From contig OZ244042.1 of NCBI GenBank assembly GCA_965215015.1, forward strand, positions 832,001 to 896,000: a DNA stretch of 64,000 nucleotides, in the 5' to 3' direction. The DNA comes from Candidatus Poribacteria bacterium (lineage in GTDB: Bacteria > Poribacteria > WGA-4E > PCPOR2b). Both the position numbers and the translations under genes were made by a program. The notes under the pieces are model-generated. The model saw nothing but the letters and a program-made list of their open reading frames with translations, was not told the origin of the DNA and ran no database searches. Numbering within the stretch: position 1 is the stretch's first letter; each line of letters opens with the position of its first letter. Of the stretch, positions 1,148 through 21,769 are shown one piece after another.

Positions 1148-2440
1148 CTAAACAGTGGCACGAATATTCGCCCGTGTTCCTTCAACATCAAAACAGGCGT
1201 ACTGATTATTCCGCATGATGCGCGTTGCGATTTGCATCGCCTGCGCTTCGGTCATATAACCATCCGCTATTTCCCCTTCGAGAGCACGGCGAATCTCGTT
1301 ACGTGCCTGTATTGCATACGCCATCGCACTTGTGGGCCAATGGGTGTCCCCGCCAAACGCAAATAGCTTGTTTGATGGGACAGCGTGCAGGAACCGCCGC
1401 AAAAAGTCGCGAGAGCTATACGGATCGATGCTCCACGCCCAACAGAGATCCACCCAGATGTTACGATAGTGCTTCGCGAGTGCGACCAGTTCATCGGTAT
1501 AGGGATAGGAAATGTGCATCAGGATAAACTTGGCGTCGAGGTAACGCGCAAAGAGATCACACATGTTGCCAGCGGGGATTCGACTGATGGGCATCCGATT
1601 GTTTCCCGCGTAGTAGCCGGTATAAATCTTGAAGGGCAGGTTGTGTTCGATAGACTGCTCAACGCCTCGCGCCCAACACCAATCTCCCAAACAGAGCCGC
1701 GTTTCGACATCGATTTCCTCCGCAGGCTGAGTTAACACTTTTCGGAGAGCGGCAGACGCTTCAACATCGTTCCGTTCAACCCAATTGAGAGTGCGATTGT
1801 AGGCGTGTTGTGCCTTCACCGCAATGGCGGTGGGAGCGTGTTTTGCAAAGATTGCTTCCATCCCCTGCTTCAGCGTTTTGAGATCTACCACCTCGATTCC
1901 CGTTTCGGCGTGGATCTGTTCCAGTTCGATTTCCCCATTGCAGAAGCTACGCCACGACAGGTCATAGAGGAAGAAGTCGAGCCCAGAACTATCCGGGACA
2001 CACACCCACAGCTTATCATCGGTCTGCGTGTGGTCAAGGTTAGCGACATCATGCAGCAATCGGAAACGTTCACCCGGGCGGCGCAGCATCTTAATTTTCT
2101 CTTGGGCCGATGCTAGGTTTGCTCCGGTGAGTTCATTAATCCCGTAGGCGTGTTGTGCGATGAGTCGCACCGCCTCGCCGTATCCAGTGAACTGTGTCGC
2201 TTCCCACGCCTCTCGGACCCCCTCAAAGCGTCCAACGATATCCGTGTCTGACCCATCCATCAGACGTTTCATCGCGTCGGGCGATGCACCCGCTGCGTTG
2301 AGGTCTGCGGGGACGTAATTTCCAAACAGGTCTTGTAAGATATCTGGCCCGTTGTCCAGCCACACATGTTCTCGATCCAAATGTTCATGTGTATCAACTA
2401 AAGCCGTATCCTGAATGTGATGTGCCAAATCGGTTGACAT
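1148..2440 (-). CDS. amidohydrolase-family protein (uronate isomerase-like TIM barrel)
   Basis: DTHEH metal motif, LMHISYPY, VDLCW, FGGD. AGGAGG RBS precedes the ATG at 2440. Confidence 0.8.
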   Translation of the reverse strand: MSTDLAHHIQDTALVDTHEHLDREHVWLDNGPDILQDLFGNYVPADLNAAGASPDAMKRLMDGSDTDIVGRFEGVREAWEATQFTGYGEAVRLIAQHAYGINELTGANLASAQEKIKMLRRPGERFRLLHDVANLDHTQTDDKLWVCVPDSSGLDFFLYDLSWRSFCNGEIELEQIHAETGIEVVDLKTLKQGMEAIFAKHAPTAIAVKAQHAYNRTLNWVERNDVEASAALRKVLTQPAEEIDVETRLCLGDWCWARGVEQSIEHNLPFKIYTGYYAGNNRMPISRIPAGNMCDLFARYLDAKFILMHISYPYTDELVALAKHYRNIWVDLCWAWSIDPYSSRDFLRRFLHAVPSNKLFAFGGDTHWPTSAMAYAIQARNEIRRALEGEIADGYMTEAQAMQIATRIMRNNQYACFDVEGTRANIRATV

Positions 2441-2478
2441 ATTTTTCCTCCTTGTATAGTCCACGCTACCACATATTA

Positions 2479-2978
2479 TAGGACTTACGCAGTTGAACCC
2501 TTAACGCCAACACCAGAAAAGGTCGTGCAATGCTCATCGTTGGTTGAACCCCCCCGGACTCTCGCGCAATGTTCCAGCGGATTGAAAATACCCGGACTAT
2601 AGCACTATAGGCCGGGTGTTTTGTCGAGATATAAGTATAGACCTGCAGGTATTGGATTAGGCGACTCGTATAGGATTGACACATCCACCGCACAAGATAC
2701 CTAGCACATTGTGCAACAGTTTTGGCCCAATCAACCCGGAACATTGCGCTATAGTCCGGGGGTTTATGACTTGGATATGTCTATCCAAGCGAAGCGGGTT
2801 TATCAACTAGCAACTATCAACTAGCAACTTAGGTTACAATAAATCCTTACCGAGAGCCCCCGATTTCATAGGGGACAGCAATTGTTATTCCCTATACAGA
2901 ACCGAGCGTCCACGATTCAGTAAGTCCCAATCAAGGTTTCGTGCCAATGGTATCGGGGGCGGAAGTGCGTAACCCCTA
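2479..2978. mobile_element. MITE-like element, family A (ends TAGGACTTACGCAGTTGAAC ... GAAGTGCGTAAxxCCTA)
   Basis: 13-bp terminal inverted repeat with 2 mismatches. The first ~70 bp match 49342-49410. Internal ~37-bp inverted repeat at 2547-2584 / 2729-2765. Confidence 0.6.
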
Positions 2979-3066
2979 TGAATTGGGCCTCGTATTTCAT
3001 AAAGAATCCCAATGTAAAAAAATTAGCGTCCATAACTGATACAAATTCACACTGACGATTATTATG

Positions 3067-3355
3067 TAGTACTTATGCAGTTGAACACTCAAAGCACACC
3101 CTGCCTTAGATACCCGTTGGCGGTGACACTTCTCCAGTTCCCAGAGGTGATTTGCCTACGCTAGCCTAGATTGCTTATCCCATTTTGCCGCGTTGTAACG
3201 GTTGTCGTTATTTTTCAGGCTGGATTCTAACAGCCTCGGTATAACTGTGTATCTATGAGTTGCAATCGGAAAGTTGATAGTGTCATATTCAGTTTATTTG
3301 GGTGGATTCATAGCTTGTATTATAAGCTATTTTCTGACCAAGTGCGTGAATCCTA
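3067..3355. mobile_element. MITE-like element, family A (degenerate copy)
   Basis: TAGTACTTATGCAGTTGAAC at 3067 and AAGTGCGTGAATCCTA ending at 3355. Confidence 0.5.
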
Positions 3356-3423
3356 ATATTATATCGTTTGTAATTTCATCAAAAAAAAAAAAATAAACAA
3401 TAGAAATTCCCTCGGAGGTATAC

Positions 3424-4068
3424 ATGCACTCCTGCGCTATTTTCGATCTGGATGGGACAATTATTGACAACTCTTCTGAGCGGGCTTTCCTCAAATATTT
3501 GCTTGAGGGTGGTGAACTGCCATTTCGTAATCTGTCTCAATGGCTCTTCAATTTTATCCGGATTCGAGATCTCCGTCAAGCCAAAGCAGACAAGGGCTAC
3601 CTAAAAGGCTTAGATTATCAGCATATTTGCAATTTAGCACAAACTTGCTTTACGGAACGCTTGGTAGACAGAATTTCGCCTAAAGTTTTTGACCTCATCG
3701 CATGGCACCGCGCCGAAGGACGATCGGTTGTCATCTTATCAGGATCTCTGGAATTCTTAATACGGTTTTTCCATGAATACCTGAAGGCGGATCTCATGGT
3801 CGGATACACCTTAGAAATTGTTGACGGAGCAATCACAGGGCACTGTGTGGGCTTAAATCCTTACGGCGAAAATAAAGCCCGATTGGTTCAGGAACTTGCC
3901 GAGGCACACAATTTTGACCTGAGCGAATCTTATGCCTACGGAAACCACCATTCGGACGCATACAAGCTCAAACGGGTTGGACACCCAGTTGCCGTCAATC
4001 CTGACAGAAAACTACGAGAAATCGCCGCTGCCAACGATTGGCATATTGAACAATTTCATATAGATTAA
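3424..4068 (+). CDS. HAD-IB family hydrolase (SerB-like phosphatase)
   Basis: FDLDGT motif I, LSGS, GENK, YAYGNHHSD, AVNPD. GGAGG RBS. Confidence 0.88.
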   Translation: MHSCAIFDLDGTIIDNSSERAFLKYLLEGGELPFRNLSQWLFNFIRIRDLRQAKADKGYLKGLDYQHICNLAQTCFTERLVDRISPKVFDLIAWHRAEGRSVVILSGSLEFLIRFFHEYLKADLMVGYTLEIVDGAITGHCVGLNPYGENKARLVQELAEAHNFDLSESYAYGNHHSDAYKLKRVGHPVAVNPDRKLREIAAANDWHIEQFHID

Positions 4069-4233
4069 GTAAAGGGAAAGTGCAAAAAGTGATGTCCCGT
4101 TCCGAGGCTCCCGATCTATCGGGAGGTGAAACGTGAAAACCATCTGTTCATCGGTTCATTAATGAACGGTGAACTAATGAACTCAATCGGTTGCTGCTGC
4201 AGGATTTCTTAGCATGAGCCACTAAGGAATATG

Positions 4234-5727
4234 CTAAACCGTGAACTGAAAGGCATAGAGTTTGCAATCATACATCTGAAAATGCAAACGGATTGGAACG
4301 CCCGCGAGCCCACTGACATCTGATTTCCCTTGGAAACGGACCAGCATAGAAACTGAATTCCCATTGTGTTCATCGGAATCCGCCAAGGTATAGCCTTCAA
4401 TTGGTCGCCCATCAGCGGACTGAATTTCAGTCCGAAGGATGCCCCCCGCACTCGTGTCTAGGTTCAGAGTTAATTGATTCCCCTTGAATATCAGCGGAGG
4501 GGTGGTCAGGCTTCCACCTCCATAAGGAGTGTCTGCTGAAATAAAGCCGTCCAACCGAGAAACAGCTCGGAATAGCCCACTCCCTTTCGTGGCCGACTCC
4601 GGGTCAGACTGGCTGGAATGGTCGAAGTTAGATCCTTTGTAGTAGTGCCATAAATCAGTCCCCACCCTTACGACGCCGGGGGCTGCGTAAATCATCCGTG
4701 ACGAAAGGGTGCCCCATGTCCCAAGCCGTAGAAACGGCTTCCGACCCCCGGCGTAGTGCCAGTCGATCCCATCCCGACTGGTCAGCAGTCGCACATCACA
4801 GGTGTCCGGGAAATTAATCTGCCGCTCGCTTGATATCTCCTTGCAGTCCCAGTGATATAGAAAACTCGGCATCATAAAGTAGGTATCCTGCGCGAAGGGA
4901 TATTTCATGCAGGCATTGGTATAAACATCTACATACGATCCGATACGGTCGCGACAACCGGGTGGCACTGGGGCACGAAAATCTTCCAGTGACGCTTGGA
5001 AGACAATCTCAGTCTCTGACCAATTCTGAAAATCCTCCGATTCAACACGCCCGACAGAACGACCTTGGTAGCCGTCCGCCTTTGTCCGTGAACGAACGTA
5101 TCCAACGTATTTTTGAAGTCGATCGTCCCAGAAAGGGACGTTCTGCGTATCGCAGTGGGCAGTATCGACACGCTTATCGTACACTTTCCAGTAGATTCCA
5201 TCTTCGGAGTACATCGCCACCAGACCACCGGTCTTTCCGGACTGAATATCCTCCGGGGGAATGCGCTGCATCTTGGTCCAGAGCTTGTAGCGTTCACCGG
5301 GCGGACAGGCGGAGTTCGTATCCTTGAAAACGGTTCCACCTTCCATCTCGCCACGCGGTGCGTCCGGGACACGGGGTGCAACGAAGTTGTTTTCCTTTGA
5401 ACCTTGAAACTCAATAAGGTTCAGGTTCAGCTTCGTCCAGTGGATGCCATCTTCTGATTCTGCATAAGCGATGCCTCGCAAGATTTCTGATGACCCTTCC
5501 GGCAGAATTACATCATACCAGAGTCGAAACAGATCGCCCTCCTTCAACACGGTGTTGTAGGCACCGATGAACCCCTCCCACGGTCGATCCACCACCAGCA
5601 CCGGCTCAGGAATCTGCTGCGGGGGATTCATCGTGAGGGTTAGTCCATCGCTTTCAGCGATAAATTTATCGTCGATAAACAGCTGCTTTTCCAAATTGAC
5701 GGCAATTGGTGCATCTATGTCTGCCAT
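4234..5727 (-). CDS. putative glycoside hydrolase (five-bladed beta-propeller, GH32/43/130-like) with C-terminal beta-sandwich
   Basis: QLFIDD, YAESEDGIHW, SEDGIYW, DTQNVPFWD, SRDGIDW, RLDGF, LYAFQF. GGAGG RBS precedes the ATG at 5727. Confidence 0.6.
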   Translation of the reverse strand: MADIDAPIAVNLEKQLFIDDKFIAESDGLTLTMNPPQQIPEPVLVVDRPWEGFIGAYNTVLKEGDLFRLWYDVILPEGSSEILRGIAYAESEDGIHWTKLNLNLIEFQGSKENNFVAPRVPDAPRGEMEGGTVFKDTNSACPPGERYKLWTKMQRIPPEDIQSGKTGGLVAMYSEDGIYWKVYDKRVDTAHCDTQNVPFWDDRLQKYVGYVRSRTKADGYQGRSVGRVESEDFQNWSETEIVFQASLEDFRAPVPPGCRDRIGSYVDVYTNACMKYPFAQDTYFMMPSFLYHWDCKEISSERQINFPDTCDVRLLTSRDGIDWHYAGGRKPFLRLGTWGTLSSRMIYAAPGVVRVGTDLWHYYKGSNFDHSSQSDPESATKGSGLFRAVSRLDGFISADTPYGGGSLTTPPLIFKGNQLTLNLDTSAGGILRTEIQSADGRPIEGYTLADSDEHNGNSVSMLVRFQGKSDVSGLAGVPIRLHFQMYDCKLYAFQFTV

Positions 5728-6061
5728 ACTTTGACCTCCGATTATGTGCTGCACCCCATACCCCTCGGTTTGGACGGGTATGATCGCTAGGTTCTCTTGA
5801 CATTTAGATGTCGAGATATGAATATAGACCTACAGGCTATCTGCCAGTATTGGATCGGGTGAGAAGGGCGGGCAAAATGTCCGACCTACGGGTGTGGTGT
5901 TGAGTTTTACGTCCCGGTGTCTTTGGTCCCGAAAGACTTACCAGACCGTGGATCCACGGTTCGGTAAACGTCAGCACAACACAACGGAATCGGGGGGGAG
6001 CGTTCAACCAAACTCCGTTTCGAGAATCTTGGACCGATGTACTATCAAATGTCAACACGCC

Positions 6062-7063
6062 CTAATCATTCGCTTCAATCATGCCTGCGGCGCGAAGTAC
6101 AGTCTCCTGAACGGTGAACTCGTGATCGAGAGAACGGTCTGGCGATTTTTCACCCCGAATATCCGCTATGAACGCGCAAAGGCTTTCGATATAGCGAGGA
6201 CGATTTTCCACCCGCACCGTTTGCCAGCCTTCGGCATAGCCGTCCCGCTCTTCATCGAGACAGAGGCGTAATGCCGGCGGCTCAAGCGGTTCAAGGATTG
6301 CGCTGCCGCGTGTGCCGTAAACTTCCAGCCGCCTCGATGCCCCCGATGAAACTTCCAGTCCCGTTGACTCGATAATCGCCATCGCACTCGGATATTCAAG
6401 GACAGCTGCTGTATTATCGTGATACCATGGAAAAGCCTTGTCTTCATTCTTTAAAAACGGAGTCACGCGATCTGGACGCCCCAATAAGGCGACAAAGATG
6501 TCGATCAGGTGGCAGGCGAGTATAAACATAATGCCGCCCTCACGTTCTCCGCGTGAATCCCATCGCTTCCATTCGTCTTCGGTTGAACCACCAGATGCTA
6601 TCCGTCCACGGACAGAGAAGATATCTCCGAGCTTGCCCGACCATGCCCAATCGAGGATGAACTGAAAGCCCGCATTGTAGCGGAACATATAGCCGAGTTG
6701 CACCAGCAACCCTTTCTCCCGTGCGATGTCTAAAACTGCACGGAACGCCTCCAAGTCATCGCCGGCGGGTTTATCGAGCCAGATATGCTTGCCTTGCTCA
6801 AGTGCTTCCCGCGCAAAGCCGAGGTTTTCCGAGACCCGCCCTTGGACAGCAATTCCAACAATTGATTCATCTTCTAGCATCTCCTCTTTCGACGAAAACC
6901 AGTGAGCACTATCATAGGGAGATGTATTTCCGAGTGTGTTGCGGGTGTCCGGTGTCGGCTCAAAGATACCGCAAAAATCGACCTCATCGCTCTCCTGCAT
7001 CACCCGCGCTTTTCCTGACGCATGATCATGGGATATACCGTATTGTGCAAGCTTGATCTTCAT
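6062..7063 (-). CDS. Gfo/Idh/MocA family oxidoreductase
   Basis: GKHIWLDKP, GYMFRYN, ACHLID, EVYGTRG. Confidence 0.88.
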   Translation of the reverse strand: MKIKLAQYGISHDHASGKARVMQESDEVDFCGIFEPTPDTRNTLGNTSPYDSAHWFSSKEEMLEDESIVGIAVQGRVSENLGFAREALEQGKHIWLDKPAGDDLEAFRAVLDIAREKGLLVQLGYMFRYNAGFQFILDWAWSGKLGDIFSVRGRIASGGSTEDEWKRWDSRGEREGGIMFILACHLIDIFVALLGRPDRVTPFLKNEDKAFPWYHDNTAAVLEYPSAMAIIESTGLEVSSGASRRLEVYGTRGSAILEPLEPPALRLCLDEERDGYAEGWQTVRVENRPRYIESLCAFIADIRGEKSPDRSLDHEFTVQETVLRAAGMIEAND

Positions 7064-15582: not shown

Positions 15583-16716
<1,134 letters not shown>

Positions 16717-16736: not shown

Positions 16737-19700
16737 TTACTCAGATGCTGTTACAGGTAGCCCGACGAAAAGCCGGCTATCAATATCCGTAAGCGGGTCA
16801 ATTTCCCGGCACGCTGCGGCGCGGGCGAACACGATCCCGGGCTGCTTGGCTCGCATCGCACGCGACAAAACGGTAAACCCTTTTGATTGGCTGCTATTGC
16901 GTAATTCCCACGCAACTCGTTCCAGCTCTAAGTTGAATCGAACAAGCCCTTCCCGTGAGCCAACGCATAGCGTGTAGAGTTCATCAGACGTTAAGCCCTC
17001 GCAATACCCGTTACGAATCACAACCTCTCCGCCTCGGATATCTGACACTGTCCCTCGCGCCCCGACAACACAACCAAGTCGATGAAGTCTGCTCGTAAAG
17101 GAGCGGCTTTTGACTGCGAGGATATGTGCTCCCAAGTTGTTATCAGCAAAGTTTTCGTAAGCGGCAATCCATTCTATAAGTTCTTCCGCGTAAGTGTCCC
17201 ACGCTGTTGCATCGTCAGGGTCCCTAGGAACGGGAGGACTACCATCGCCCCTACTGAGAAACGGACTCATGGATGCCCCCGATTCCTTTACAATTTCGAG
17301 TCCACGCTGCATCAACCGTTCAGCGACTTCAATGGTGCGATCAATTCCCTCGCGTTTGAGGAGTGTTCTTAGCGTATCCGCTAACGAGCGTCGCGTGACC
17401 AAACCATCAGGAATAGCAACCTCCATCCCGACAATTCCTGCGAGTTCATCACGCCCCTCAGGGGTGAGACTCAAACTTGCCAATCCCCATATCGCGTCAT
17501 GCCCTGGGGCTAATGCTGTGCATACATTTGGATCCCGTTTGAGATGTCCAGTGATGGAGAGCCGTTCACTAGCTTCTCGTTGGCCCGCCGCTGTGATGGG
17601 CAGAAAAACCGCCGCTTGGTCGCCATCAAAGTCAGCATTCATTAACTCACAGACGAAAGGGTGAACACGGATGACACGGCCTGGCTGGCGTACCGGATGA
17701 AATGCAACAAAGGAGGTAGGCATATACGCAGGGGCTCGATGCACAATCACCCATGAACGTCCCATCAGCTCATCAAGTGCCTGTGTTGCACCTTGGCTGC
17801 GGCCTCGCACGGCTTTGGCATCACCGAGTTCCTTTGTAAGTTCCGGCCCGAAGAGTGCCCATGCCATCTGTTCTGGAATGCCGACCTGATCGGCGCGTAG
17901 CTCCGCACCCGGGACAATGACGCAGCGCCCACTGAAGAGTGTCCGTGCCTTAAAGCGCATGTCTGCCGGGCTTAGCAGCACGTTGAAGTATTCCGCAAGG
18001 CGCGTTTGGAGTTGCTTGAGGGCTTGGAAGGTCAGGCTTTCCGGTGCATCATTTGCAAACATCCGCTCTGCTCTGGTATTGGCATCGGCAAGTACATGAT
18101 ACTCGGAAATGCCTTCACAGACACCAACTTCATCAATGGTTTGACTATGTAGCCACGGATGGGAGACTGGCCGGGCAAGCTGGAGCGTATTTCCAGTCGG
18201 ACGTACAAATTGGAAAGTCAGTCTGTCACCATCAAAGTTAGCGCAGATACCTGCCGCCGAAAGCTGCTCCCTGAGCTTAGTAAACATCGGCGTCGGTGGA
18301 CTTGCTTGCTCAACTTTCCCTGCTGTAACACGATCGAGAAGTGTCTCCGCATCTACTCGCGTCGCAGCACGGGTATTGAAATGTTCCCGCAAAGTTTCAA
18401 ATGCTGAAGTGTTGCGTAGCGTATAGTATTCGAGTTCACCAAGCCCTTGATGATATATAGGGGCCTCGTGGACGATTGGTTCAGATACCTTGAGCTTATC
18501 AAGCGCGATGTGAACTGTCTTCCCCCAATAAACCCAACCAACTGTACTCGGCCGATTCAGTTTTTTGCCGTTAGCTCCAAACGTGAGGGTTTCCATCCCA
18601 TCTTCAGGCAGCCCTAACTTTTGGAGTAGCTCACGGAGTTGATTGACACTAGGTGCTTGAAATGGCGGCACAATGGCCGTTTCTCCTTCCGTCCGTGCGA
18701 TGCGCCCCACGATTGCTTCACGGATTTGACCAAAGTTCATCCGCCCGTGCAAAGCACCGAAGCTGAAGACAAGCTCTACCGGCGTGCCATCGGCGAGGTG
18801 GGGCATCTCATCGTCAGGGGTGATGCGCGAAATGACCCCTTTCGTGCCGTGACGGTTACTGATCTTATCACCCGGCTCAATAATATAAGGGAAATTCAGA
18901 CGCGTAGCGCACGACTCACTAATCACGATGCCGTCCTCAAAGGTCTCCCCGCCCCAAGAGATAAAAGCGGTCAACAGATTACGTCCACACCAAAAGTAGG
19001 GGACATCAGGCTCGTAACCTGTCTGGACAAGTGCAGGCTCTGGGGAGACAGTCAATCTTGGCATCTCCTTGGAACAGCTAACTGGAGCAGCCTCTGGAGC
19101 AGTAGGCGACAACCACTGACGCATCATGTTCGCCCCCATGAGTACTCGCGATGGATCATTGTGTTCGAGAAAAGGGATTAGTGCTGCAGACAGACCTAGC
19201 GTTGCTTCCTGGCTATCATCCACGATGACCAATTTTTTATCACGAATCTCCGCCCCCCTCGCAACTGTCAGAATTTTGCCGACGTTTGGTCCTTCTGGCG
19301 TTTCAAATGGGCAGGTCCGTCCAAAGTGTCCAGAGGTAAAGACCTGATTCCCCTGTAAAATCCGCACCCTACGTAGATGTGTATGCTTGTCGAGCCAGTT
19401 GGTACTGGAGAGTCTCTGAGCGGTAAATGTGTCACGAAAGAACTCGCGCACCCATCTGTCAATCGGAAGCCACGAGCGAATAAGCGACGTATCCCATTCC
19501 AGATCTGGCGGTGCTTCTCTGATACGCGCTTTGAAGTAATCGTACAGTTGATCGCCCACACACTCAATCTTCGCTTGTTTCAGTTTCACGGTTGAGGCGG
19601 TCGGTACGACAACATAGGGTTCACCATCAAGCGTGAACATACCGTCTACATCAGGCTGCGGAATACCCGTGTATTCGACCTCAACATACCCCTCAGTTGA

Positions 19701-19856
19701 CGCCAGCACAAGTTTCACGCGACAGGTGTACGTACCAATTGGCTCAAAACGATAACCGGCTAGTGGCAGCCGGTCAGCAAGGAGTTCTGGCAATCGTTCT
19801 TTCATCAATCCTTCAAAAGACTGCTTGTGCCAAAATGCAGTAATGTTGTTCGACAT
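16737..19856 (-). CDS. miniature single-chain RNA polymerase beta-beta' fusion (RpoB/RpoC-core-like, 1039 aa)
   Basis: Ordered RpoB motifs: THLRR, GRTCPFETPEGPNVG, LIPFLEHNDPSRVLMGANMMRQ, GRNLLTAF..FEDGIVISE, GDKISNRHGTKGVIS, DGTPVE, GRMNFGQI, VGWVY..KTVH, QGLGELE. These are followed by RpoC motifs: LARPVSHPW, clamp helices, FSGRCVIV, HRAP, HPFVC..NADFDGDQ (aa 740-746; nt 17619-17639), EGL..GSREGL, AA...DPL. AGGAGG RBS. Confidence 0.92.
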   Translation of the reverse strand: MSNNITAFWHKQSFEGLMKERLPELLADRLPLAGYRFEPIGTYTCRVKLVLASTEGYVEVEYTGIPQPDVDGMFTLDGEPYVVVPTASTVKLKQAKIECVGDQLYDYFKARIREAPPDLEWDTSLIRSWLPIDRWVREFFRDTFTAQRLSSTNWLDKHTHLRRVRILQGNQVFTSGHFGRTCPFETPEGPNVGKILTVARGAEIRDKKLVIVDDSQEATLGLSAALIPFLEHNDPSRVLMGANMMRQWLSPTAPEAAPVSCSKEMPRLTVSPEPALVQTGYEPDVPYFWCGRNLLTAFISWGGETFEDGIVISESCATRLNFPYIIEPGDKISNRHGTKGVISRITPDDEMPHLADGTPVELVFSFGALHGRMNFGQIREAIVGRIARTEGETAIVPPFQAPSVNQLRELLQKLGLPEDGMETLTFGANGKKLNRPSTVGWVYWGKTVHIALDKLKVSEPIVHEAPIYHQGLGELEYYTLRNTSAFETLREHFNTRAATRVDAETLLDRVTAGKVEQASPPTPMFTKLREQLSAAGICANFDGDRLTFQFVRPTGNTLQLARPVSHPWLHSQTIDEVGVCEGISEYHVLADANTRAERMFANDAPESLTFQALKQLQTRLAEYFNVLLSPADMRFKARTLFSGRCVIVPGAELRADQVGIPEQMAWALFGPELTKELGDAKAVRGRSQGATQALDELMGRSWVIVHRAPAYMPTSFVAFHPVRQPGRVIRVHPFVCELMNADFDGDQAAVFLPITAAGQREASERLSITGHLKRDPNVCTALAPGHDAIWGLASLSLTPEGRDELAGIVGMEVAIPDGLVTRRSLADTLRTLLKREGIDRTIEVAERLMQRGLEIVKESGASMSPFLSRGDGSPPVPRDPDDATAWDTYAEELIEWIAAYENFADNNLGAHILAVKSRSFTSRLHRLGCVVGARGTVSDIRGGEVVIRNGYCEGLTSDELYTLCVGSREGLVRFNLELERVAWELRNSSQSKGFTVLSRAMRAKQPGIVFARAAACREIDPLTDIDSRLFVGLPVTASE

Positions 19857-19922
19857 GCTATCCTCCTATTTCTTTCGTATTGCGTGTGTGTAGATTGTAA
19901 AACGTCAAATATTGCTACTCGC

Positions 19923-20537
19923 TCACCTTTCCTCTTCTTCCCAGCCGCTTGCGATCTCCTTCCATTCGCGGGCAAGGTGTTTTATGGAATGGTGTAAACG
20001 CGACTTCACTGTGCCTTCTGGAATACCTAGCTCTATGGCGGCTTCTCGCAGTGCCATTTCCCTCTGATATATGAGGTGAAGGACTTCGCGTTTCTCTTGG
20101 GGGAGCTCATCAACAAGCTGCCAGAGCAGCTGAGATTGTTCGGCTTGCTCCACCATCACTTCGGGACCATGTGACGAAACGTCAACCATCCAATCTGGAT
20201 CTGGCAGACGTTCCTCCTCATCGTCGAATTCGTCTGGAGGTATTTCAAGGGGTTCCTGTCGCCGTCGCCGCACGGTGCGCAGATGATTGAGGGCGAGGTT
20301 CGTTGCGATGCGGAAAAGCCAGCCCTTGAACTCGCCTTGACCATTCCACTGTTCAGCACGCGTCCAGACACGTAAAAACACCTCTTGAACCAGATCCTCA
20401 GCAGCACTTTCAACCCGCACGATGCTAAGGATATGCTGACGGACGGGCACACGGTATCGAGCAAAAAGCGTTTCAAAGGCGGCGGCATCGCGCTTTACAG
20501 TCTTGCGAATGAGGGTTTGGTCTGATTGTTCCATCAT
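19923..20537 (-). CDS. ECF (group 4 sigma-70) RNA polymerase sigma factor
   Basis: Region 2: AEDLVQEVFLRVW and FKGWLFRIATNLALNHLR. Region 4: AAIELGIPEGTVKSRL. Confidence 0.95.
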   Translation of the reverse strand: MMEQSDQTLIRKTVKRDAAAFETLFARYRVPVRQHILSIVRVESAAEDLVQEVFLRVWTRAEQWNGQGEFKGWLFRIATNLALNHLRTVRRRRQEPLEIPPDEFDDEEERLPDPDWMVDVSSHGPEVMVEQAEQSQLLWQLVDELPQEKREVLHLIYQREMALREAAIELGIPEGTVKSRLHHSIKHLAREWKEIASGWEEEER

Positions 20538-20554
20538 AAAAGGCTTTCACTGTA

Positions 20555-20582
20555 AATGACACCGTAGGAGGGATAAAAGTTC
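20555..20582 (-). promoter_or_regulatory. putative ECF-type autoregulatory promoter
   Basis: Minus strand reads GAACTT(20582-20577)-N16-GTCATT(20560-20555), 17 nt upstream of the sigma ATG. This matches the sigmaE/AlgU-type consensus GAACTT-N16-GTCwrA. Confidence 0.7.
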
Positions 20583-20794
20583 ATTGTCTGAATCAGGATT
20601 CTCAGGATTAGGTTAAATAAAACGCAAAGGCGCGAAGGCACAGAACCGCAAAGAAGATCAGACAAAACTTTGCGTCTCTGCGTTAGATTTTTCATCGAAT
20701 CCCGATTAGGTTTTCGGATTTTGGGTGGCGTGAATGGGTATAAATGTGATAAGATGCACATGTTACTCATCACACAATACATTAGGTTAGGAAC

Positions 20795-21769
20795 ATGTCA
20801 AAAATAAGAATCGGTATTATTGGATCTGGCGGTACCGGGACGCGTCATGCAGATAGGTTCTCTGAAATGGAAACCGCCGAGGTTGTAGCAATTGCGTCAA
20901 GAAACGCTGAAACGGGCAACGCACTCGCTGAAAAACATGATGCGGAGTTTATCTCCAATTGGCAGGCACTTGTCCAGCACGATGATCTGGATGGTGTTGT
21001 TATCTGCACCCATAACGATACCCACGCCGAAATTGCACTCGCGGCACTCCATTGCGATAAACATATCTTTATGGAATATCCATTGGCACGGTCAATTGAT
21101 GCGGGTGAAGCTGTGGTCAAAGTTGCACAAAGCAATCAGCGGGTTCTGCGGATTAACCACTCCGAAACCGTGTCTAACTTGCATCAGGCAATTAAGCAGA
21201 AAGTACAGGGACTTGGAGATCTGCTGTTGACCACCTTTTTGCGCCTTACACCGGGGCGAGGCGTCCGTCCGGAGATTCTTTTCAATTTGCCTGTTTCCGG
21301 TCCACCGGCACACTTTTTCATCTACCACATCTACCCAGTCATCGATATCTTCGGAGGTATCAGGTCGGTCGAAGGGGCAGCGGTTTACGAAGGTTTAACG
21401 GATCAGGGAAATTATAACCGATTTGTCAACACCGTCAATGTCGAATTCAAAAACGGTGGGGTGGGAAGTTGGGTCTGGGCTGGAGGGGTGGAGATTCAGG
21501 ATTCTGAGCAGCACGCCCGCTATGTTCTGACCGGTGGCACAATTAGCGATAGCAGCAGCAAGTGGCACTGTTCAACGGGGACAGGAGTGGAGGAGATTCT
21601 GCCGGTTGACGCCCCAAGTGTTTCGCTTCAGGAACGGTGGATACAGGAGATTCAAAATCAGGAGATAGGCGCAGCGCATAGAGATGCAGTTACCGCACTT
21701 GAAGCGATACGGGTGAGCTTGTCCGCCGAACAATCAATGCAGAAGAAACGACGGATTGTGTTGGAATGA
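20795..21769 (+). CDS. Gfo/Idh/MocA family oxidoreductase (biliverdin reductase-like)
   Basis: IGIIGSGGTG, ICTHNDTH, KHIFMEYP. Confidence 0.85.
   Translation: MSKIRIGIIGSGGTGTRHADRFSEMETAEVVAIASRNAETGNALAEKHDAEFISNWQALVQHDDLDGVVICTHNDTHAEIALAALHCDKHIFMEYPLARSIDAGEAVVKVAQSNQRVLRINHSETVSNLHQAIKQKVQGLGDLLLTTFLRLTPGRGVRPEILFNLPVSGPPAHFFIYHIYPVIDIFGGIRSVEGAAVYEGLTDQGNYNRFVNTVNVEFKNGGVGSWVWAGGVEIQDSEQHARYVLTGGTISDSSSKWHCSTGTGVEEILPVDAPSVSLQERWIQEIQNQEIGAAHRDAVTALEAIRVSLSAEQSMQKKRRIVLE

Follow-up and report, generated by a model that had tools for sequence, protein, structure and literature searches.

Background

Extracytoplasmic function (ECF) sigma genes usually, though not universally, adjoin the gene of a cognate anti-sigma factor. 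What is then the task of an ECF sigma factor whose gene is followed by the gene of a miniature RNA polymerase (mini-RNAP)? This question is raised by a two-gene operon of a Candidatus Poribacteria bacterium (assembly GCA_965215015.1, contig OZ244042.1, positions 832,001 to 896,000 of the forward strand). The whole stretch of 64,000 nucleotides is called the window here, and positions are given in its own numbering. An earlier note on this DNA described an autoregulated ECF sigma factor paired with a mini-RNAP that occupies the place of an anti-sigma factor. It offered two models: (a) a private sigma factor with a private core, and (b) a core-mimicking decoy that sequesters the sigma factor. 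The textbook view, as far as we know, is that bacteria have a single RNA polymerase core common to all sigma factors.

We find that a conserved chromosomal family pairs a private sigma factor with a core of about one third of the usual size. Linkage, trees, promoter conservation, the genome motif scan and joint loss or decay all support the pairing itself. We lean, by a little more than an even chance, towards an autonomous autoregulated module made of an ECF-type sigma factor and a catalytically competent single-chain mini-core, orthogonal to the host machine. We see in it a new version of the bacterial scheme of sigma factor plus core, drastically cut down, fused and private.

Conservation of the gene pair

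The sigma gene is co-oriented with the mini-RNAP gene and lies 66 bp upstream of it, so the proposed arrangement agrees with the list of open reading frames (ORFs). A scan of genome contigs kept 80 loci, of which 21 (L006-L026) are members of the family and the rest are canonical rpoB-rpoC. According to their titles, the family loci come from Poribacteria, Chloroflexota (Anaerolineae, Caldilineaceae), Planctomycetota (Phycisphaerae, Planctomycetales, Brocadiaceae), Latescibacterota, Myxococcales and Hydrogenedentota. The nearest relatives of the mini-RNAP, about 85% identical, are titled as Candidatus Poribacteria metagenome-assembled genomes. A sigma ortholog (36-88% identity, tblastn) is present directly upstream and on the same strand in 20/20 family loci with upstream DNA; L026 begins inside the mini-RNAP gene and was excluded from this count. 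Two further loci from Chloroflexota (L172, L174) repeat the sigma-first arrangement, and the pairing thus extends to 22/22 loci in five phyla. The prediction that homologs would keep the ECF gene as a neighbor is borne out. No other ORF family is common to the loci beyond the four closest Poribacteria. The remaining multi-locus ORF clusters are shadow ORFs overlapping the sigma and mini-RNAP genes.

Outside Poribacteria (13 loci) no more than 28 nt separate the two genes, where these do not overlap altogether; in Poribacteria the spacer measures 66-263 nt. Judged by the gene layout, sigma and mini-RNAP genes appear to be translationally coupled in most lineages. Variable inverted-repeat insertions rich in GC, reminiscent of small repeat elements, sit between conserved flanks in the Poribacteria spacers of 200-263 nt (L006, L008, L010, L023).

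The trees of sigma factor and mini-RNAP, built from 20 pairs, agree on all well-supported clades and have 7/17 splits in common. Their patristic distances correlate with r 0.894, a value reached by 0/2000 label permutations. The phylogenies are hence congruent; common host ancestry alone would account for some of the correlation.

The family is widespread. A word-indexed search returned 2308 proteins at expectation value (E) <= 0.001 among 8000 scored candidates. The 120 matches listed have 990-1106 aa, carry only the Pfam domains PF04565, PF00623 and PF00562, and, where their source gives a name, are called "hypothetical protein" or by lists of Pfam domains. When 1.84 billion cluster representatives were searched exhaustively, 9896 matched at E <= 0.001 and 552 at E <= 1e-30, with canonical beta and beta' among the lower-scoring ones. 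About 100 full-length (~1000 aa) mini-RNAP clusters at 50% identity are among the 150 matches listed. No fusion of sigma factor and mini-RNAP occurs among the 120 matches listed nor, judged by length, among the 150 representatives listed. ESM Atlas holds two clusters of the family (135 and 73 members), named "hypothetical protein" or "DNA-directed RNA polymerase family protein". Other clusters there, 1221-1787 aa long and lacking any record of taxa, are fused beta-beta' chains that carry both barrel families, so other fused forms exist.

Promoter and regulon

The sequence 5' of the sigma gene reads tGAACTTttatccctcctacgGTGTCATT (tGAACTT-N16-GTCATT) and is followed by 17 nt and the ATG. The promoter of the earlier note is therefore present as described, and its motif recurs in 22/22 loci. 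The fuller motif of the family is TGAACY-N14-(C)GGTGTC (GAAC-N18-GTC), and its spacing is invariant across loci. It is a promoter predicted from sequence, with a GAAC-type -35 and a GTC-type -10 element as in autoregulated ECF systems. The motif is found in 20/20 loci of the first set, exactly in L172, and with one base changed in L174 (TGAACT-N14-CTGTGTC); L020 has GGTC where the others have GGTGTC. The distance to the aligned start of the sigma gene is usually 34-73 nt and reaches 155 nt in L009. Recurrence of both the gene pair and the motif in 22/22 loci is better than chance.

The genome of the host is closed (5.94 Mb) and contains a single copy of the mini-RNAP gene. We scanned it with strict patterns and with a position weight matrix (PWM) built from 14 sites of different clades. 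The operon site scores 34.1 bits, a value inflated by the inclusion of the window's own site among the 14 training sites. The next-best site in the genome has 19.4 bits and the best one in the reversed/complemented-genome control 19.1. The strict pattern TGAACY-N14-GGTGTC has two matches genome-wide, one at the operon and one inside an ORF at 2,788,655; the looser GAAC-N15-GGTGTC has 18, against about 11 expected by chance. Neither the strict patterns nor the PWM gave a second site above control scores in the host genome. Because these scans leave the operon as the sole site above background, the sigma factor is, by the measure of sequence, without a recognizable target except its own operon, and the predicted circuit is a closed loop.

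In 29 genomes of the family there are 0-7 pattern matches per genome versus 0-3 in the control. Every mini-RNAP carrier among them that has pattern matches shows one beside its own operon, and recurring extra matches occur also in genomes without mini-RNAP. Five genomes from other groups have 2-5 matches each. In one locus (L090, G029:C35:75500-81500, reverse-complemented) sigma and mini-RNAP genes stand 690 bp apart, and each has its own TGAACTTT..CTGCGGTGTC promoter (at 866 and 2174). A separate promoter copy per gene implies that the mini-RNAP gene itself is maintained under this promoter.

Three extra sites resemble the local sigma promoter. The first (L088, G180:C1:35800-41800, at 590) lies 5' of two long ORFs (547 and 484 aa). 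The second (L091, G030:C1:2071300-2077300, at 541) comes from a genome in which no mini-RNAP match reaches E <= 1e-50, and the third (L089, at 333) is on contig C12 of G029, reverse-complemented. These sites could be further targets or relics.

Anatomy of the mini-RNAP

The Pfam domains of the mini-RNAP are Rpb2_3 (149-204), Rpb2_6 (326-457, 137 bits) and Rpb1_2 (700-764, 68 bits). To judge by their order, a beta-derived and then a beta'-derived part make up one chain. By sequence, it comes closest to bacterial beta (E 2e-43) and beta' (E 1e-23). The AlphaFold2 model, made from a 56-sequence alignment (members 37-85% identical to the window's mini-RNAP), has a mean predicted local distance difference test (pLDDT) score of 92.4 and a predicted template modelling score of 0.89. 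Its best Foldseek matches in PDB are bacterial beta chains (E about 1e-24). VIA-align superposes residues 1-547 of the model on entire beta/Rpb2 chains; on 8i23_C, for instance, Z is 29.9 over 524 residues, at a root-mean-square deviation of 2.9 and 29% identity.

Both catalytic barrels and the clamp helices are kept (Table 1). The hairpin 584-627 falls by hhalign on the beta' segment LYRRVINRNNRLKRL..AP..IIRNEKRMLQEAVDAL, and the motif N.RL.R...AP is preserved. Deleted are the lobes, the flap, the zinc-binding N-terminus of beta', the rudder and, as it appears, the trigger loop and everything downstream of it. In place of the flap, the step from residue 317 to 326 of the mini-RNAP spans 790 to 1043 of beta in 8dkc_C (~250 residues). 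The hhalign alignment with full-length host beta' (probability 100, E 2e-43) stops at host residue 875; the trigger-loop motif AAQSIGEPGTQLTMRTFH is located at 939-956, past this end, and the mini-RNAP terminates 50 residues after the bridge helix. Since the alignment ends before the motif and just 50 residues follow the bridge helix, the trigger loop appears to be absent; a substitute of non-homologous origin may take its place.

Two assignments are rejected by this mapping. VFARAAA.GE.DPL is not the first trigger-loop helix, as hhalign places it just after the bridge helix. PVSHPWL is not the beta' segment following the zinc domain; hhalign places it at the lid region.

The catalytic motifs NADFDGD, FED, GDK..RHG.KG and MGANMMRQ and the R of HRAP are conserved across the 56 diverse sequences. 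Residues G329, D330, R335 and G337 are invariant, and at least 90% of the sequences keep D742, D744, G745, D746, K331, H336, K339, G340, R246, Q247 and D308. The dN/dS ratio of nonsynonymous to synonymous substitution rates is 0.14-0.18 for mini-RNAP in comparisons with three or four close relatives. The barrel hallmarks of two-barrel RNA polymerases are found: two double-psi barrels, DxDxD on one of them and lysine/arginine motifs on the other. The full-length NCBIfam cut-offs are missed by far (rpoB 178 vs 801 bits, rpoC 93 vs 963 bits). Unlike canonical rpoB/rpoC, the gene is fused, scores below the equivalog cut-offs, and has lost the flap and the N-terminus of beta'. We suggest that the mini-RNAP is a minimal two-barrel polymerase derived from bacterial beta and beta', which would be capable of RNA synthesis.

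The sigma factor

The sigma factor contains Sigma70_r2 (24-91, 62 bits) and Sigma70_r4_2 (136-188) and fits the ECF (group 4) layout, with sigma2 and sigma4 domains alone in ~200 aa. The only NCBIfam model it passes is the general ECF model TIGR02937 (112 bits vs cut-off 42.9); it reaches the cut-off of no specific NCBIfam sigma subfamily. Its dN/dS in comparisons with three or four close relatives is 0.13-0.21, so that purifying selection acts on both genes. Region 2.2 (DLVQEVFLRVW) is canonical in appearance. Alignments further show a conserved linker motif PDWMVD (114-119), with P114, D119 and P125 specific to the family, and a conserved acidic tail WKEI..WEEEER (192-204). Such a conserved linker and tail are unusual among ECF sigma factors. 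Against PADLOC, the sigma factor has one weak match, in the helix-turn-helix region (E 2e-4).

The ORF list shows no third ORF in the operon beyond the two genes, which means that no anti-sigma gene is there; nor is a third gene common across loci that could encode a cognate anti-sigma factor. The stated lack of a membrane or zinc-binding anti-sigma gene is therefore confirmed. The main text of the ECF classification PMC7826278 has zero matches to Rpb1, Rpb2, rpoB or rpoC.

Does the sigma factor bind the mini-RNAP?

On a normal core, the beta' clamp helices are the main determinant for sigma region 2. The beta flap-tip helix is the canonical dock of sigma4, which is held by the flap tip and the beta' zinc domain. 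Of these sigma-binding features, the mini-RNAP has kept the clamp-helix hairpin and lacks the flap-tip helix.

We predicted the complex of full-length sigma factor with mini-RNAP residues 1-796 (cut because of a 1000-residue limit), both partners being given as alignments. The score was 0.36 (runs 0.36, 0.35, 0.42), while the best of three controls had 0.00; this lends weak support to an interaction. In calibration, the mark was reached by 58/80 solved complexes and 2/110 mismatched pairs. At scores of 0.60 or under there were just 7 of those 80 solved complexes, together with both passing mismatches. Contact agreement between the runs was at least 29% and partner pLDDT at least 61; the interface was not reported. 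As sigma-core complexes have already been solved, the pass may reflect likeness only. The complex prediction proposed in the earlier note thus came out above its controls and gave no interface to inspect. The kept clamp helices, the conserved linker and tail, the coupling of the genes and this prediction together favor binding of the sigma factor to the mini-RNAP. Two observations speak against it: the mini-RNAP has lost the flap-tip helix and the beta' zinc domain, and the ordinary ECF spacing of the promoter is one that the host core would read.

The module is accessory

The sigma/mini-RNAP module is accessory. In the phylum of the window it is present in 33/176 genomes (22/28, 9/11 and 0/112 in individual families), and in 3/401 sampled Chloroflexota. 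Among the other genomes of the same genus, 5/19 are without mini-RNAP and none of these five has an intact sigma ortholog. One (G056) retains an 84%-identical sigma copy with two stop codons and another (G054) a sigma fragment covering residues 105-190 only. In the remaining three (G044, G055, G043) the best sigma matches are 32-36% identical paralogs. In G054 and G056 the syntenic site between bioD and the oxidoreductase gene carries, in place of the mini-RNAP gene, an opposite-strand ORF of 342 aa with 42% GC. Decay of the polymerase gene was seen as well. In G050 (C2:821089-824204) it is split into two open frames (610 and 495 aa), and in G031 (C1:2648683-2649193) its last 155 codons remain, with a promoter copy 21 nt upstream.

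The 342-aa ORF contains a nucleotidyltransferase-like motif and has the decayed sigma gene as its neighbor, a pseudogene in G056 and a C-terminal fragment in G054. It lies at about 6760-8400 of L086 (G056:C1:5428000-5442000) and about 6800-8440 of L087 (G054:C1:863000-877000).

A possible model and its alternatives

We propose the following course of events. The sigma factor would recognize the conserved TGAACY-N14-GGTGTC in front of its own operon, resulting in positive autoregulation. First expression is probably accomplished by the sigma factor on the host core, and later expression by sigma factor plus mini-RNAP. Region 2 of the sigma factor would dock on the clamp helices of the mini-RNAP; docking on these retained helices would make it the private initiation factor of the mini-RNAP. 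The mini-RNAP could then initiate at the operon's own promoter. It would be active without a trigger loop, promoter specificity being supplied by the sigma factor. We give even chances to the model in its full extent: at least five phyla would carry a second, orthogonal machine, with a 115-kDa single-chain core that lacks flap, trigger loop, alpha and omega and is programmed by sigma via the clamp helices, in a closed positive-feedback loop with one private promoter.

Several points weigh against this model. Firstly, the flap-tip helix, the zinc-binding N-terminus of beta' and the rudder are all missing from the mini-RNAP, and the complex prediction gives weak support from a truncated chain and no interface. 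Secondly, the ordinary ECF -35/-10 spacing fits the sigma factor on the host core at least as well. Thirdly, with the trigger loop apparently missing, activity of the mini-RNAP is not assured. Fourthly, the pattern and PWM scans of the host genome found no template beyond the operon itself, and a polymerase transcribing only itself has no evident use. Finally, joint loss of the two genes is equally expected if the sigma factor merely switches on the mini-RNAP via the host core, and the losses in G054 and G056 may be a single ancestral event.

The best surviving alternative is a classical ECF circuit with a one-operon regulon. The sigma factor would work with the host core only and the mini-RNAP would be a sigma-independent effector. 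Its template would be special, for example single-stranded DNA, RNA, nicks or bubbles, or it would perform primer-like synthesis. We regard this explanation as unlikely on balance and as the one to be taken most seriously. It agrees with the canonical promoter spacing kept in hosts of five phyla, with the canonical look of sigma region 2.2, and with the loss of the flap-tip helix and zinc domain that hold sigma4. Joint gene loss and the duplicated promoter in G029 fit it equally well. Related single-chain two-barrel enzymes, such as YonO, act without a known sigma factor (PMC5467207). However, the clamp helices have been kept while most other non-catalytic parts were deleted, and the sigma factor has its conserved linker and tail. 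That the genes overlap or abut in 13 loci points to both proteins being made in equal amounts, as in a complex, and the complex prediction, if weakly, also speaks against independent action (0.36 vs 0.00 for the best control). As for model (a), a private sigma factor with a private core, the clamp helices and the weakly supportive prediction favor sigma binding, which fits either this model or a mixed role; the missing flap and the ECF spacing fit the host core as well.

A very improbable alternative is a mobile or defence module, for example a back-up or anti-phage polymerase on a horizontally moving two-gene cassette. The patchy spread over several phyla and within the genus would suit it, as would the split copy in G050, the remnant in G031 and the self-contained character of a cassette with its own promoter. 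However, the mini-RNAP matches no PADLOC family (0 families), and none of its matching records in phage and plasmid collections (0/37 and 0/68) covers at least 80% of it. Ordinary genes, syntenic among close kin, flank the cassette, its borders show no integrase, repeat or tRNA, and the trees of both proteins largely track host groups. A mobile-element origin was rejected: the phage and plasmid matches are only of canonical rpoB/rpoC type and the loci kept from IMG/VR are only two-gene phage polymerases. The 80 IMG/VR loci kept (L092-L171) have adjacent, separate genes of ~900 and ~1000 aa, which are 21-34% (mostly 22-26%) identical to residues 178-972 of the mini-RNAP, and no match to the sigma ortholog was found in them. 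PHROG matches of the mini-RNAP are beta/beta'-like families only (phrog_24349, 25354, 3295, 2987).

Least probable of all is the decoy of model (b), in which the mini-RNAP would sequester the sigma factor via its clamp helices in negative feedback with catalysis dispensable: the gene does occupy the usual anti-sigma position, the clamp helices are kept, no other anti-sigma factor is present and the complex prediction gives it weak support too, but conservation across the 56 sequences extends to both barrels' catalytic residues, to switch 2, to the F region and to the bridge helix, purifying selection (dN/dS about 0.15) acts over the whole 1039 aa, and about 50 clamp-helix residues would suffice for a decoy. 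Conserved catalytic residues and purifying selection thus speak against a pure decoy; a mixed role of enzyme and sigma sink is possible.

Comparison with known systems

With a bacterial core and ECF sigma factor, for instance the sigma-H holoenzyme of M. tuberculosis (PMC6411747), the pair has in common both barrels, NADFDGD, the fork/Rif segment, switch 2, the clamp helices, the F region and the bridge helix, as well as the two ECF domains and the GAAC/GTC-type promoter. Unlike such a core, the mini-RNAP has no lobes, flap, zinc domain or rudder, and apparently neither a trigger loop nor the parts that follow it; there is no sign that it requires alpha or omega. All its 1039 aa form one chain, whereas the rpoB and rpoC ORFs of the same host encode 1706 and 1414 aa.

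ECF sigma/anti-sigma operons have autoregulation, the leading position of the sigma gene, co-transcription and an often translationally coupled second gene in common with our operon. Their second gene encodes a membrane or zinc-binding anti-sigma factor, whereas here it encodes a polymerase of 1039 aa with intact catalytic motifs.

YonO of the B. subtilis prophage SPbeta is a single-chain two-barrel polymerase of ~100 kDa, efficient without a recognizable trigger loop. It has few catalytic residues in common with multisubunit enzymes and transcribes late phage genes, with no known sigma factor or defined promoter according to that account (PMC5467207). The likeness to the mini-RNAP is architectural, set side by side by description: a single chain related to multisubunit polymerases, without a recognizable trigger loop. 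Unlike YonO, the mini-RNAP plainly descends from beta and beta', is encoded on the chromosome and always comes with a sigma factor. Orf6 of the yeast killer plasmid pGKL2 is a fusion Rpb2::Rpb1 of 982 aa, from which about half of each parent is deleted (PMC2919709). This enzyme of a cytoplasmic plasmid in a eukaryote, for which an origin from nuclear Rpb2 and Rpb1 is assumed, has no sigma factor in that account. Compared by description, Orf6 and mini-RNAP have the same order of parts (second-largest, then largest subunit) and nearly equal size; the likeness is probably convergent.

Other additional polymerase genes are the rpoB paralogs of Nonomuraea (PMC5431353), which are extra full-size catalytic subunits joining the normal core, and the reduced polymerases of phages (PMC7481178, PMC7598289), which are split multi-gene enzymes. 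As far as these accounts go, no fused mini-core that has an ECF sigma factor of its own is among them. Of the published enzymes, YonO and Orf6 come closest. Our literature search, which did not extend to the ECF-group neighborhood supplements (PMC7826278), brought up no account in which an ECF sigma factor and a fused mini-RNAP form a pair.

If our model is true, the module represents the smallest sigma-dependent RNA polymerase of cellular type. Nature would thereby provide an exception to the rule of one core per bacterium as well as a minimal model of sigma-dependent initiation. A working holoenzyme would reveal which parts are truly required to recognize promoters, open DNA and synthesize RNA in a sigma-dependent manner. 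With two genes and a single 26-bp promoter, it would also present a compact orthogonal expression system, and one would have to ask how a cell benefits from a polymerase if the sole promoter recognizable for it is its own. If the sigma factor acts only via the host core, the mini-RNAP would be a new cellular single-chain polymerase, which is almost as interesting.

Features of the locus

The features of the operon, its product and its borders are collected in Table 1. The borders proposed earlier, a divergent gene on one side and a convergent bioD with a hairpin on the other, were recovered as an oxidoreductase gene, an AAA_26 gene and a 10-bp inverted repeat. This repeat has no T run and is not listed by the terminator scan. 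GGAGGA stands 5 nt 5' of the mini-RNAP ATG. Scans of the whole window for Rfam families (gathering score) and for tRNAs gave zero matches.

Table 1. Coordinates of the operon, of the parts of the mini-RNAP and of the neighboring features
Feature	Window position	Strand	Mini-RNAP residues	Details and basis
ECF-type promoter TGAACT-N14-GGTGTC (predicted)	20558..20583	-		-35 TGAAC 20583-20579; -10 GGTGTC 20563-20558; 20 nt before sigma ATG
ECF-type sigma factor gene	19923..20537	-		204 aa; ORF call, Pfam, TIGR02937, alignments, dN/dS
Spacer between sigma and mini-RNAP genes	19857..19922	-		66 nt; GGAGGA ribosome-binding site 19861-19866
Mini-RNAP gene	16737..19856	-	1-1039	1039 aa; single chain, reduced beta (1-547) and reduced beta' (548-1039)
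Fork/Rif-region segment of beta			130-208	Sequence/profile alignment
PFLEH..MG.NM.RQ segment			211-260	Sequence/profile alignment
FED segment			278-317	Sequence/profile alignment
Beta-type double-psi barrel with GDKISNRHGTKG (329-340)	18486..18881	-	326-457	Pfam, alignment
Beta C-terminal part			466-547	Sequence/profile alignment
Short strand region, corresponding to beta' lid region			548-583	Sequence/profile alignment
Helical hairpin, corresponding to beta' clamp helices	17976..18107	-	584-627	Helices 584-601 and 606-627 in model
Switch 2 FSGR			641-644	Alignment
R of HRAP			706-709	Alignment
Catalytic loop NADFDGD of beta' barrel	17619..17639	-	740-746	
Reduced helical region and F region			Between beta' barrel and bridge helix	Alignment
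Bridge helix	16890..16988	-	957-989	AlphaFold2 model; aligned to beta'
GFO/IDH/MocA oxidoreductase gene	20795-21769	+		Divergent border; ORF, Pfam
bioD-type gene (AAA_26)	15945-16706	+		Convergent border; ORF, Pfam
10-bp inverted repeat TTAGTAGGGG-11 nt-CCCCTACTAA	16686..16716	.		Between the convergent stop codons of bioD and mini-RNAP

Two minor observations concern the polymerases themselves. The Rif-region segment of the mini-RNAP (window 19284-19430, residues about 143-191) reads AQRLSSTNWLDKHTHLRRVRIL and was aligned to a solved beta chain. What we take to be the E. coli positions D516 and S531 are S and R in the mini-RNAP, a hint that rifamycins may not act on it. The rpoB and rpoC genes of the host itself lie elsewhere, at 2.19 Mb. 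The rpoB ORF (L175, G000:C1:2190000-2204000, 1833-6950) is, with its 1706 aa, long for a beta subunit, and because of this length it probably carries lineage-specific insertions.

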